Shown piece after piece: positions 2,738-57,786 of a DNA stretch of 64,000 bases (position 1 is its first letter; each line of letters begins with the position of its first letter). Source of the stretch: a phage; sequence record PZ386951.1. One strand, written 5' to 3'. Position numbers and translations under genes: made by a program. The notes beneath the pieces are model-generated. The model was given only the letters and a program-made list of their open reading frames with translations, was not told the DNA's origin and made no database searches.

Positions 2738-3195
2738 TAATATGCCTGTAAAACAAATTTAAAGTTATCAGCCAACATACGATTCATTTCTTCAAGCGTT
2801 TGATACTCAGAATGATGATTACGAGTAAACGCTAAAGCTAACTGTCCTTTTCCAAATCCCGTCGTCAGAGGTTTCATCTTAGAAGCAGGCAGATAAAATA
2901 CTGTGTATGGAACATTGTTATTTGCAATAGTACGTGCAAGCTGAGACCGACGTTGACGAATATGACTTAGAACTGCGCTGAATCCTTGCTTAGAACGTTG
3001 ATTACCTACATAAAATCGTGCTGACACACATGGATTACTAAATGGACGACCATCTAATTTACTTACTAAAAAGTAAAATCCAGGTTTAGATAAAATATCT
3101 TTATGCGGAGTTCCCAAAAACCACTCACCACCCTTGATTGTACCAATAACAGTAGCGCCTGCGTTGTTCAGATCAGTAACAGTCATGTATTTCAT
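2737..3195 (-). CDS. ndd: Ndd nucleoid disruption protein
   Basis: About 152 aa starting at [11 protein letters not shown] with GGAAA RBS; the track ORF 2737..3243 is over-extended upstream; size and position match T4 ndd. Confidence 0.8.
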
Positions 3196-3255
3196 ATTAA
3201 TTTCCTCTAAATTATTTTCTACTCCAAGGCCGCATGAATACATGCGGCCGATAAA

Positions 3256-3471
3256 TTAATCGTCGCAGTCGACGCTCAATTCCCAAAACTCTTCCACAGT
3301 ATAAGTTTCAGTATCATTTTCAATACAGAAACGTTCATTACTGTTATTTGCTAAAGTAGCATTAACTGTCGGTTTCTCGCTAGTGCTCTTAAGAGGTGAA
3401 ATACGAATTAACTGATCACCGTTATCTAAACAGAAAATTTCACCAACTTTTACATCTTTAAAACTTTTCAT
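3256..3471 (-). CDS. hypothetical protein (71 aa)
   Basis: Minus ORF with ATG start in the ndd-denB small-gene block. Confidence 0.55.
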   Translation of the reverse strand: MKSFKDVKVGEIFCLDNGDQLIRISPLKSTSEKPTVNATLANNSNERFCIENDTETYTVEEFWELSVDCDD

Positions 3472-3586
3472 AATTTACCTCAAGGAGTATAAAATCCGAA
3501 TGCAGTTGTTGACCATCCCATCCAATATGGAAAATTTGCACCAATGTAAAACATAAGAATATAAAACCAAATGTTTAGTAAATTCA

Positions 3587-3784
3587 TCATTTTACACCAT
3601 TCCAAATTGTTTCAACCACAGATTTTAAACCATTTTGATGAATATCCATTCCGACTACCGCCATCAAATAGATTCCAACTACAACTGAACCTAAGGCAAA
3701 AATCAGCATGAAAATGAATAAAGCCGGAAAAATATTATCGAAAAACCATTCAATAAATGTAAAAGCACTGCGTTTACGCTTCAT
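3587..3784 (-). CDS. small membrane protein (about 65 aa)
   Basis: Start moved to internal ATG at 3782-3784 with GAGGAAAAT RBS (track start is TTG); hydrophobic core FPALFIFMLIFALGSVVVGIYLMAVVG. Confidence 0.5.
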   Translation of the reverse strand: MKRKRSAFTFIEWFFDNIFPALFIFMLIFALGSVVVGIYLMAVVGMDIHQNGLKSVVETIWNGVK

Positions 3785-3791
3785 ATTTTCC

Positions 3792-3905
3792 TCACATAAA
3801 TCCAAAGTAAGCGTTTAATACATCAATCATTAAAACGATTGGGAATATACTCAAAACTATTAGTATTATAACTACATTCCATATAACTTTAATAATCTTT
3901 TTCAT
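3792..3905 (-). CDS. small membrane protein (37 aa)
   Basis: MKKIIKVIWNVVIILIVLSIFPIVLMIDVLNAYFGFM; ATG at 3903-3905 with GGAGG RBS, downstream of early promoter 3934-3963; track ORF 3792..4040 is over-extended. Confidence 0.5.
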   Translation of the reverse strand: MKKIIKVIWNVVIILIVLSIFPIVLMIDVLNAYFGFM

Positions 3906-3933
3906 TTTCTGTTCCTCCGTAGTTGATAGGGTA

Positions 3934-6303: not shown

Positions 6304-8481
6304 TTAGGTCGCAAGGGCCTTCATAGTTTTGGCGATTTGGGAAACTTCATCATCACTTAAAGAGTTGCGATATCCGATGAAGTCGGAAACAATACGGAAT
6401 TTCTTGGTAAACTCAGCAACCATTTTATCACTGTTTTTTGAAGCATTATTTGATAATACATCAAAAAGATTAGTTACTGTCCAGATGTCATGACCGATGG
6501 TATCTTTTCCACCGTTGAAATATACACCCTGTAATGAACTAACCATATTAGCGAGTCGTGTATATTCTTCAGAAACTTCATCTACACTGAAGTACTTCAT
6601 CATAAAATCTAACTCAGGATACTTGATAATTTTATCAATATATCGTTTAGCTGAACTTGAATAACCTACATACTTATCATAATCTACATCATCAAAAGCA
6701 TCTACATATAAATCACGCAAAGCTTCAAAAATACATTGGCACTGACCGAGTTCTTTTACCTTTTTCTGTAAAAGCGGACGAATAACATAAAATTCATTAA
6801 TGCCAATAAGATTAGCCATACGAATCAAAATATTCATAGATGGATGACAAAGAGATGTAGTACCATCCATAGAGAAAATATCAGAACGATGCATATACGC
6901 TACATAACCAGTAATTTCATCTGCTTCTGACGTAAGTGTAAATAGTTCCTCTTTTTCCCAGCGCCCGTCTTTAATTTCAAATTTAAATGCTGTAGCAGCT
7001 TTAGGACGAGGAGCTTTACTTTTAATTACCTTTGGAATATAGCTTTTAACTAAAGCTTCAATTTCTGACAAATAATGAATGTTAACTTCATCACTTTCAA
7101 ACATCGCCATAATATCAGGAAGCAAATCAATCTGCGATTCTACTTCCGGATTAATAAACAGAAGACGCTCATTGTGATGAATATTTAAAGTGTTATTAAA
7201 TTCACTATCATCTAACGCATGTGCTAATCCACGGACAATATTAACACGATTTTTAATATTATCAATAACGATATTAATTTTTGTTGTATTAATACCAAAC
7301 AGACGATAACTTGATGCAACGGCTGAAGTTTCATGACTTTGCTTAATGCGTTTCAGTCGAGGGTCAAGATTTACTTCATACACAACCCCTGCATTACATA
7401 ACTTACTATCAGGTTCAAACATACTCTGCATCTTCTTATATGACAGATTTTTAGTCGTGAATTTGACTGAATTACTAATCATATAATCTCGAGCAGAATA
7501 CCCCATCTTCATCAATTCACGATATGTATGACGGGGAGATGTAGATTCTTTAAATCGTTTTACATCTTCATTAAATGCTTTCTCACTGAGTTCTTTAACT
7601 CGTTCAATAATATTTTTACGAGTGCGATCATCTAGTGAAAGAGCCTCGCGAGATGGAGCAATATCAAGTGAACCCATTGGAAACTTAATGTAATTCACTT
7701 CATTGCGAATGCTTAGCCAGTTACGGTCTCTAATAACACCATCGATAGGATAAACAATACCGCCATAGATAGCATATAATCCGCCGCGATCTGGCCAGTA
7801 TCTTTCTGGATTTACACCGTAATAATCATCAAAATCCGGAAAATAATCAATTTCGCGGTCAAGACCATTAATGATAGCCAAATCTTTGAACGGTCGCATG
7901 ATATAAGAAACTTCATAAGCAAAGTTTCTAAAGTCTTTTTCTTCAACTGGAACTACGATTTCAATACCAGTTTTATCATCTGGACCCATTTCTTTTACGA
8001 ATGTAGGTTTAATCTGCGGACCATCGCCATCCATGTAAGCTACATAACCACGAATTTCACCTTTATGATACGAAGTAATACTAAATGTATCAGTATAACT
8101 AAACGGAGATTTAGAACCTAAACCAAATCCGCCAATGAAATCGTTAGATTCAGCCTTAGATGAACTGAAGTATGAATTATACAGCCCAGGAGAATTATCA
8201 TCACCCTGAATATCAAAATCACTCATACCCGGACCAAAATCTCGACAAACAAATCGTGGATCTAAACGTCCAGGAACTTGAATGATAAATTTTTCAGGAT
8301 TTCCATTGAGAGCATGAGCATCAATCATGTTAGTAATTAATTCACGGACTACTGCGCGAATTTTGTTTGTATACAAATCAGATGACAGAATTTTAAATAC
8401 TTTAGGAGATGCTGTGATGCTAAATGCTTTTGATTTAGAACCATTACCAAGAATTGTTTCTTTTTCAGTGGTGATAATCAT
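6304..8481 (-). CDS. rIIA: RIIA
   Basis: 725-aa ORF, same length as T4 rIIA; conserved rIIB-rIIA-39 synteny. Confidence 0.88.
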
Positions 8482-8491
8482 AATTTCCTCA

Positions 8492-8695
8492 TTAATTCAT
8501 ATTACGCTTAATAACTTCAGCAACTTCTAGTAGTTCATCTTTAGTTGCGGTGTCGGATTGAATTTTATCTCTAATATCCTTAAAGCGGTTTTTAAATTCT
8601 TCGGCTTCTCCCATATCGAAAAAGCGTTGAATGATTCTATATTCTCGATGAACTGCTTTATCAAAAAGTTCTAAATTTACTTTATATGATTTCAT
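8492..8695 (-). CDS. hypothetical protein (67 aa), rIIA.1-like position
   Basis: Minus ORF between gene 39 and rIIA, downstream of early promoter. Confidence 0.6.
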
Positions 8696-8720: not shown

Positions 8721-8750
8721 ATTATACCACATCCTTGTGGTAAAGTAAAC
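8721..8750 (-). promoter_or_regulatory. T4-type early promoter (consensus TGGTATAAT / GTTTAC)
   Basis: ATTATACCA at 8721-8729, GTAAAC at 8745-8750. Confidence 0.65.
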
Positions 8751-10567
8751 TACTGGCTCATCCATTCTTTACGAAGGTCAGCATTATCTCCCATGAGCAT
8801 TTCAAAAAGCTCTTTCCAGTTCTCAGGAAGTTTAACAACATCATATACTGGATTTTGAATCATTTCACGATATTCAGATTTTTCCAAAGAGCCAAGTCCT
8901 TTAATATAACGGATGCTATGTTTAGGTAGAGCATCTTTGGCACTCTCATATTCAGCGACTGTATAAAACCATTCTTGTTTTTTACCGACCTGAGCGATGA
9001 TTACAGGAGTTTTGACAAAGCGAATTCGTCCTTGCTCAAACAATTCTGGCCAATTACTAAAAAATCCGAGCAGAGAAGGATAAATGCTTCCTAGACCATC
9101 ATAGTCAGCATCAGTCATAATAGCAATATTGCGATAATTCAAGTTTTCAGCTTTTTCACCAAGAACTAGACCAGTGATTGCGCAAATATCAAACAGTTCT
9201 TTGTTTTTAAGCATATCAGCATATGACATACCCCAGCTATTAAGAACTTTACCGCGTAATGGATAACCACCATGAAGTTCTTTATCGCGAACATCAATAA
9301 GATATCCGATAGCAGAATCACCCTCAGTCAAGAAAAGAGTAGTATCAGCATCTTTACCACAAAGATTCGCTTTAATATGTTTATGAACCTTAGCTTTAGA
9401 AGCCTTTTTAGCTGCTTTAGTTTCTGCCGCTTTTTCTGCCGCCAATTTACGAGCTAGTGCAGCTTCAATAATCGGCATCAAAATCGCTTCATTATTCAAA
9501 ATAGCACGTGAAATCTTTTTAGCATCAAGTTGAATATGACTACGGATTTCACCAAATGGAGAAGTCAAACGCTCTTTAGTTTGAGAATCAAATCGCATGT
9601 TTTTCATATCACGAACAAACATAACGATAGTCAAACATTCTTTAACGCGTGCTTTAGTTACATCAATTTTGAACTTACGTTTGATTTGTGGAATAAGGTC
9701 TTCACAAATATCATCCATAACACAATCAATGTGATGGCCACCATTCTTAGTATGAATGTTATTCACATAAGTTAATTGACGAAAACCATCCGGTGAACGA
9801 CCAACCGCAATAGAACAATTTTCTTGCTCTTGAACAATAGCATGTTCATCATACTGTCGTGCATATTTCTTAAAATTGCCCTGAACCTTTTTACCATTAA
9901 AGGTAAATTGAATATCAGGATAAACAACAGCAAGTGTCTGGAGACGATCTAATGTAATGTCAAGATAAACTTGGGACAGCTCATTAGTTTCAAATGTCAT
10001 AAAATCAGGAATGAAAGTAACACGGGTTCCTTTCCATTTTCCAGGAATATCTTCCCATGATTTATTTTCCATGCCATTTGAACAACGAACTACAATATTA
10101 TTTTGACCGTCGCCAGTTTCACCAACAAACATCACAGAAAAAATATTTGTCAAACTAGAACCAACACCATTCATACCGCCAGTGACGCGTTCTTTATCAT
10201 CACCAAAGTTACCACCTGCTTTTGGAATAGTCCATGCAGCAACAGGACCAGGAATTTCTTCACCGGTAGGTGTTTTAACCATCGCCTGTGGAATACCGCG
10301 ACCGTTATCTTCAACTGTTACTTGATTGTTTTTAATAGTAACATTAATTTTATTTGCGAATTTAAACTTAGTACGAATACCTTCATCGACTGAGTTATCG
10401 ATAATTTCATCAATAAGCTTAACAAGACCAGGTACATACTGAACACTTTCCCATTTACCAAACAGAAAGCGCTCATGCATTTCATTAGCTGAAGAGCCAA
10501 TGTACATGCCGCTACGCTTTTTGATATGTTCAATATCGCTCAGAATTTTAATTTCATTCTTAATCAT
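8750..10567 (-). CDS. 39: DNA topoisomerase II large subunit gp39 (GyrB-like ATPase), unsplit form
   Basis: About 605 aa from ATG at 10565-10567 (track start is GTG one codon upstream); MIKNEIKILSDIEHIKKRSGMYIGS... GHKL ATPase; no separate gene 60. Confidence 0.92.
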   Translation of the reverse strand: MIKNEIKILSDIEHIKKRSGMYIGSSANEMHERFLFGKWESVQYVPGLVKLIDEIIDNSVDEGIRTKFKFANKINVTIKNNQVTVEDNGRGIPQAMVKTPTGEEIPGPVAAWTIPKAGGNFGDDKERVTGGMNGVGSSLTNIFSVMFVGETGDGQNNIVVRCSNGMENKSWEDIPGKWKGTRVTFIPDFMTFETNELSQVYLDITLDRLQTLAVVYPDIQFTFNGKKVQGNFKKYARQYDEHAIVQEQENCSIAVGRSPDGFRQLTYVNNIHTKNGGHHIDCVMDDICEDLIPQIKRKFKIDVTKARVKECLTIVMFVRDMKNMRFDSQTKERLTSPFGEIRSHIQLDAKKISRAILNNEAILMPIIEAALARKLAAEKAAETKAAKKASKAKVHKHIKANLCGKDADTTLFLTEGDSAIGYLIDVRDKELHGGYPLRGKVLNSWGMSYADMLKNKELFDICAITGLVLGEKAENLNYRNIAIMTDADYDGLGSIYPSLLGFFSNWPELFEQGRIRFVKTPVIIAQVGKKQEWFYTVAEYESAKDALPKHSIRYIKGLGSLEKSEYREMIQNPVYDVVKLPENWKELFEMLMGDNADLRKEWMSQ

Positions 10568-10594
10568 CACTTATCCTCGTTTGGTTTCGGGAAT

Positions 10595-10619
10595 ATTATA
10601 CTCCAATAATCATAAAGCT
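10595..10619 (-). promoter_or_regulatory. MotA-dependent middle promoter candidate upstream of gene 39
   Basis: Minus strand reads AGCTTTA (MotA-box-like), 12-nt spacer, TATAAT. Confidence 0.5.
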
Positions 10620-10620
10620 A

Positions 10621-10636
10621 AAGGCCCGAAGGCCTT
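10621..10636 (-). terminator. intercistronic GC stem-loop (UUCG loop)
   Basis: AAGGCC CGAA GGCCTT. Confidence 0.5.
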
Positions 10637-10897: not shown

Positions 10898-10902
10898 AAT
10901 TT

Positions 10903-11274
10903 TCACTTAAATTTAATGGCTTGAAGAAGACTAATAACTCTCAAGCGGCTTCTTTCATCTTTAACTGTAAAGGAAAGAGGGTCACCAGATTTCATAGTGA
11001 TAGTGCATTCAAAATCAAAATCTTCAGGAACTTCTTCGAAGAAGTCAAATTCTTCATCATAAATTAGAACATTACTTTGAAAACTGTGAAGAATTTTTCC
11101 ATCATTTCCAGATGCTGTACTAATCATTGTAACATTATGGCCTTTCATATCTTCAACGATAAATTCGCTTGTAGATATTACAGCATTAATAGAACCATTC
11201 CTATAAATAGCAGACATTAGATATTTCTTTTCTTCACCTTCGCGAATACGGTATTTCTTACCAATTTTAAACAT
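10903..11274 (-). CDS. hypothetical protein (about 123 aa)
   Basis: Minus ORF; ATG at 11272-11274 two codons inside the track GTG start. Confidence 0.55.
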   Translation of the reverse strand: MFKIGKKYRIREGEEKKYLMSAIYRNGSINAVISTSEFIVEDMKGHNVTMISTASGNDGKILHSFQSNVLIYDEEFDFFEEVPEDFDFECTITMKSGDPLSFTVKDERSRLRVISLLQAIKFK

Positions 11275-11276
11275 AA

Positions 11277-11453
11277 TCACCCTTTAAGTAAATCGTAAAA
11301 ACCACCATTCACATGCTTAGGAGCAGAAACTAACCGAATAGCAATCCGATGACAATCAGGACATACATCAGTATCCCTTTCAGAAATTTTCTTGATTTTT
11401 TCGTATTCTTTTGCACAGTCTTTGGATTGACATTTATAATCATAAAGAGGCAT
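11277..11453 (-). CDS. small zinc-ribbon protein (57 aa)
   Basis: MPLYDYKCQSKDCAKEYEKIKKISERDTDVCPDCHRIAIRL... contains CxxxxC...CxxC; below the ORF track size cut-off. Confidence 0.45.
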   Translation of the reverse strand: MPLYDYKCQSKDCAKEYEKIKKISERDTDVCPDCHRIAIRLVSAPKHVNGGFYDLLKG

Positions 11454-57770: not shown

Positions 57771-57786
57771 GGAGCCCGAAGGCTCC
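57771..57786 (-). terminator. GC stem-loop (UUCG loop) 3' of the nucleotidyltransferase gene
   Basis: GGAGCC CGAA GGCTCC. Confidence 0.5.

Follow-up and report, generated by a model that had tools for sequence, protein, structure and literature searches.

An uninterrupted topoisomerase gene 39 at an apparently empty MobA-cassette site in a T4-like phage

The large ATPase/Toprim subunit of a phage type IIA topoisomerase is encoded, in the stretch of DNA analysed here (sequence record PZ386951.1; 64,000 nucleotides, hereafter the window), by a single, unsplit gene 39 (Table 1). The gene reads on the minus strand from an ATG at 10567 to a TAG at 8752–8750 and comprises 605 codons, with no internal stops or frameshifts in the ORF translation or in its alignment to the T4 proteins. 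A first-pass annotation had proposed a single 605-aa ORF at 8750–10567; its coordinates are exact and its frame is indeed free of internal stops, although the strand had been left unstated. Nor does the 605-codon frame hold a stop or frameshift needing bypass, which that annotation had named beforehand as the sign of a different arrangement. The minus-strand ORF listing extends to 8750..10570, counting 606 aa from a GTG, but GTG at 10570 was dropped as the start of the gene, as both the spacing of the ribosome-binding site and the homologues favour the ATG. The latter is taken to be the real start because a GAGGA Shine–Dalgarno sequence sits 6 nt upstream of it, because the annotated starts of T4, T2, T6 and RB32 agree (MIKNEIK...), and because the protein aligns over residues 1–605 with T6 gp39. 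Plus-strand ORFs within the gene, the longest of 96 aa, were taken as mechanical by-products.

Table 1. Features of the gene 39 locus and its partner gene, in window coordinates
Feature	Position	Strand	Basis
Gene 39, large ATPase/Toprim subunit of phage type IIA topoisomerase, unsplit, 605 aa	8750..10567	-	ORF list, alignments, Pfam
GAGGA ribosome-binding site, 6 nt upstream of ATG	10574..10578	-	Sequence read directly
GHKL ATPase domain, aa 47-149	10121..10429	-	Pfam PF02518 HATPase_c, E=2e-9, 38.3 bits vs cut-off 26.4
Transducer domain, aa 250-384	9416..9820	-	Pfam PF00204 DNA_gyraseB, E=1.4e-13, 51.1 bits vs cut-off 27
Toprim core, ~aa 409-518	9014..9343	-	Motif positions and alignment to T6 gp39/type IIA enzymes; boundaries inferred
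Toprim C-terminal associated domain, aa 519-604	8756..9013	-	Pfam PF16898 TOPRIM_C, E=2.4e-7
Putative empty MobA-cassette site, codons 474-494	9086..9148	-	T4 comparison and published element anatomy (bioRxiv 10.1101/2022.08.31.505936)
Gene 52, partner DNA-cleavage subunit, 442 aa	1025..2353	-	Full-length match (1-442) to 8yo3_A/8ylu_A, E ~1e-297
rIIA, downstream of gene 39	6304-8481
rIIA.1, downstream of gene 39	8492-8695		PF24210

The domain content of the protein is that of a complete large subunit. All three Pfam families, HATPase_c, DNA_gyraseB and TOPRIM_C, exceed their gathering scores, and the QTK loop sequence of the transducer is present at residue 329. A full Toprim domain lies within the one polypeptide, with the catalytic Glu in the motif EGDSA (aa 415–419) and the acidic DxDxD cluster in DADYDG (aa 486–491). 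In T4, by contrast, the Toprim core is the domain which is cut in two. The solved T6 large subunit (8ylu_C) aligns over residues 1–605 with a score of 1377 bits, whilst the artificially fused T4 gp39–gp60 chain (8yo3_C) aligns in two pieces. Further afield, residues 6–605 align with ParE and the human and yeast forms of topoisomerase II (E = 1e-47 to 1e-59). The order GHKL, transducer, Toprim is also that of bacterial GyrB/ParE and of the N-terminal half of eukaryotic topoisomerase II, albeit at a much lower identity to the phage protein.

The partner of this subunit is directly observed in the window: gene 52 lies some 6.4 kb from gene 39, and the two chains which it matches along its full length are those of the T4/T6 'DNA topoisomerase medium subunit'. 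The cleavage subunit of the phage enzyme is the short gp52, which is without a GyrA-type C-terminal domain, and the structure and enzymology of both the two-subunit T6 and the three-subunit T4 enzymes have been published (PMC11461880). ATP-dependent DNA relaxation has been shown for T6 gp39 together with gp52 (PMC11461880), and with an amino-acid identity to T6 of ~99% the present gp39 would be expected to support the same activity. The window is that of a Tequatrovirus, its first 25 kb being ~95–96% identical to known members. Gene 39.1 lies upstream of gene 39, and the order rIIA, rIIA.1, 39, 39.1 is as in T4, T2, T6 and RB32.

Comparison with T4 shows where the two alleles differ. Residues 1–473 correspond to T4 gp39 1–473 with 98.3% identity and residues 472–605 to T4 gp60 27–160 with 94.8% identity in protein alignment, so that the ORF represents gp39 plus gp60 end to end, minus the T4-specific insert; both the integrity of the frame and this collinearity are seen directly. 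At the DNA level, window positions 10899–9150 align with T4 5661–3911 (96.0%) and positions 9085–8400 with T4 2793–2108 (99.1%). Between these flanks, 46 nt at 9141–9096 are only 74% identical to T4 2899–2854, the segment termed homR. T4 is matched more closely on the downstream side of the cassette site than on the upstream side, a contrast for which the mosaic ancestry of T-even genomes may be explanation enough.

T4 carries two extra pieces of DNA in this region. One, of ~1,011 nt (T4 2900–3910), is without a counterpart in the 64-kb window; its coding content is a 43-aa tail of gp39, a decayed mobA and the opening 30 codons of gene 60. The mobA of laboratory T4 is a pseudogene, for which the annotation gives mobA plus 60.1. 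At its N-terminus T4 gp60 bears a nascent-peptide signal which is lacking here. The other piece is the 50-nt untranslated gap, T4 2803–2852, with its GGA take-off codon, UAG stop, stem-loop and GGA landing codon, none of which is found at the present locus. The first T4 breakpoint maps after codon 473 (GCT, 9151–9149) and the position of the gap after codon 491 (GGT, 9097–9095). From codon 490 onwards the window reads GAT GGT CTA GGA AGC ATT (D G L G S I) in frame. T4 instead reads GAT GGA, followed by the gap (UAG and the other 47 nt, ending in GGA) and then by TTA GGT TCT ATT; GGT-CTA in the window thus stands against GGA-UAG in T4.

The MobA element is described as inserting after residues 466–473, with its 3' end just past D490/G491, and as bringing with it the diverged homR copy of the segment that it replaces, at 67–81% identity; in the T4 clade, another 9 nt derived from the cassette follow the gap (bioRxiv 10.1101/2022.08.31.505936). 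As judged from the alignments, the layout of the window and T4 matches this published anatomy exactly, the stretch of codons 474–494 being swapped in T4 for the cassette's own diverged copy.

The whole 64 kb was searched for parts of the cassette, using blastn at word size 7 for the T4 insert DNA, tblastn for the proteins, and a fuzzy search that tolerated as many as 18 substitutions in the 50-nt gap and three in the stem-loop core. Apart from chance-level hits, blastn gave no match to T4 2900–3910, and tblastn found no homologue of gp60.1 or of the MobA fragment and no match to the gp39 C-terminal tail or to gp60 residues 1–26 anywhere in the window. The sole tblastn match for cassette parts was that of gp60 residues 27–46, within the gene at 9154–9095, as expected. 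There is no second, gene-60-like ORF in the 64 kb, nor does the 50-nt gap have a copy there at a tolerance of 18 substitutions. The 91-nt junction RNA folds no better than shuffled sequence (z = +0.45) and forms no take-off hairpin; the equivalent T4 RNA forms the ten-pair UUCG take-off stem-loop and a 5' stem-loop (z = −2.07). The cassette is therefore absent from the window as a matter of observation, and gene 39 needs no recoding. On all three counts, no gene 60, no mobA and no bypass element or hairpin, these searches bear out the first-pass annotation.

The nearest relatives of the gene are the unsplit alleles. Gene 39 is 1818 nt long in the window and in T2, T6 and RB32, and the alignment is free of gaps, with the same 605 aa matched end to end in T2 and T6. 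Nucleotide identities lie between 96.6 and 97.4%; the window differs from T2, T6 and RB32 by 62, 58 and 48 nucleotides, respectively, but by only four, five and three amino acids. That 48–62 nucleotide differences translate into only 3–5 amino-acid changes points to a working gene under purifying selection. In RB32 and RB51, gene 39 carries the annotation '60plus39', and structures are available for T6 gp39 (8ylu, 8yo1 and related entries). Among the replacements, T2, T6, RB32 and UoN_LDJ77_1 have S191 and H489 where the window has T191 and Y489, and R479 is common to the RB51 group but is found in neither T2 nor T6.

Residue 489 deserves comment. Its codon is TAT (9103–9101, minus strand), giving DADYDG rather than DADHDG in the Toprim DADxDG motif, through a C to T change in the coding sense at window position 9103. 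All six phages compared (T2, T4, T6, RB32, RB51 and UoN_LDJ77_1) have His. An identical 76-nt or 52-aa junction stretch was present in no phage record searched, the best matches having one difference, and a junction scan of a viral contig collection yielded very small counts, none for the Tyr variant and two contigs for the His variant. Since residue 489 occupies the non-acidic 'x' position that separates the second Asp from the third in the Toprim DxDxD cluster, the substitution is expected to be tolerated. It lies inside the ~60-nt stretch which the MobA cassette replaces, ~16 nt from the reported nick region, and in the segment where MobA is reported to nick (Bonocora et al. 2011, as described in citing work). 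There is a slim chance that the change alters MobA recognition, giving a putative homing-resistant empty site, or that it tunes metal binding. A neutral private substitution and a sequencing or base-call error are possible alternatives.

The contiguous form of the gene is the prevalent one. With a 2.6-kb query around gene 39, a single alignment covering at least 80% of the query was obtained for 522 phage records, which are counted here as contiguous. The T4 insert was found in 43 records (41 of them full-length), mostly T4 isolates together with a few relatives such as RB55, RB59 and HY01, making the contiguous form ~12 times commoner than the split one among close relatives. A 52-aa peptide that bridges both T4 junctions runs without a break in 1,413 phage records, among them Klebsiella, Acinetobacter, Aeromonas and Vibrio phages, and bacterial ParE/GyrB and eukaryotic topoisomerase II align uninterrupted across the region of the T4 split. 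From work on MobA, as reported by a later study, the extra T4 DNA codes for a homing endonuclease, intact MobA nicks the T2 allele, and in mixed infections MobA transfers to T2 both the split and the 50-nt insert (Bonocora et al. 2011, via bioRxiv 10.1101/2022.08.31.505936; see also PMC2988022). From the record counts, the continuity of the cellular enzymes and this published homing we infer that the contiguous gene 39 would be the uninvaded, ancestral state, a polarity which is well supported. The proposal of an ancestral T2/T6-type arrangement, made in the first-pass annotation, is strengthened accordingly by the shared length with T2 and T6 and by the dominance of the contiguous form. The reading as an uninvaded allele agrees with the literature (Bonocora 2011, in the account of Manning & Atkins 2022; Xin 2024).

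Taken from sequence comparison, the locus is almost certainly an uninterrupted gene 39 allele of a Tequatrovirus, a T4-like coliphage, with a two-subunit topoisomerase and an empty MobA site. A single polypeptide would combine the GHKL ATPase, the transducer and the complete Toprim domain, and would assemble with gp52 into a two-subunit, ATP-dependent type IIA topoisomerase as described for T2 and T6. Translation would be collinear and ordinary, without bypassing, frameshifting or reassembly of subunits. On this reading, the locus represents the 'empty site' for the cassette of MobA homing endonuclease and bypass element which has broken the gene up into genes 39 and 60 in T4 and in a minority of its relatives. 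For the present allele, enzymatic activity, two-subunit composition and sensitivity to MobA are all predictions from these relatives.

It might be asked whether a cassette was once gained and later lost, re-creating the single ORF. Manning & Atkins propose such a 'hit and run' history for one clade of Aeromonas phages (bioRxiv 10.1101/2022.08.31.505936), and if a split allele were replaced through recombination with an uninvaded phage, nothing of it would remain visible. The Aeromonas cases, however, retain homology to the C- and N-terminal extensions of the cassette (bioRxiv 10.1101/2022.08.31.505936), whereas tblastn detects no such remnants of the gp39 tail or of gp60 1–26 in the window. 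The protein is moreover exactly as long as in T2 and T6, and codons 474–494 are of the parental T2/RB51 type, with 1–3 nt differences, as against 74% identity to the T4 cassette copy. Secondary loss is consequently very improbable, and replacement by recombination with an uninvaded phage would in any case lead to the same present-day object.

Still less credible is the suggestion that assembly produced the continuous ORF as an artefact or that the gene is inactive, the real phage having a split gene or being without a working gp39. The one feature in its favour is the unusual H489Y beside the catalytic aspartates. Against it, the same 1818-nt ORF occurs in hundreds of independently sequenced phages, and silent changes relative to T2, T6 and RB32 outnumber replacements by a very high ratio. 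The gene moreover has an intact ribosome-binding site, start and stop, and all of the domains are detected.

An uninvaded gene 39 is the common, long-described T2/T6-type arrangement and is already known. The gene should be annotated as one CDS for the topoisomerase II large subunit, with no join or bypass feature, and the phage assigned to the T4-like majority in which the MobA cassette has not entered gene 39. Genomes of this kind are natural recipients in homing and serve as 'parental' references for mapping the boundaries of the cassette; the window provides one more of these references, with a slightly different target-site sequence (R479, Y489). Beyond correct annotation the significance is little.

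A number of minor features surround the gene. In the 39.1–39 spacer, directly after the 39.1 stop and ~55 nt upstream of the gene 39 start, there is a perfect tetraloop hairpin, AAGGCC-UUCG-GGCCUU (10621–10636, minus strand), followed by a TATAAT box at 10600–10595; together these look like a transcript-end or stabilising hairpin and a promoter. The fuzzy search for the stem-loop core picked out a further UUCG hairpin at ~57772–57785 (GAGCC-UUCG-GGCUC, of the CUUCGG type), which is similar to the upper part of the take-off stem-loop in T4 gene 60 but unrelated to gene 39. A strong promoter-like site (TTTACT, 17 nt, TG-TATAAT; 8721–8749, minus strand) begins at the base directly following the gene 39 stop, upstream of rIIA.1 and rIIA. 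Finally, an ORF of 125 aa with no Pfam match lies between 39.1 and 39.2 (10903–11280, minus strand). T4 is without a gene at this position, whilst a hypothetical protein that matches it in size is annotated there in RB32 and T6, the one in RB32 being RB32ORF005c, noted as 'similar to RB69ORF005c'; the ORF is a small indel polymorphism.
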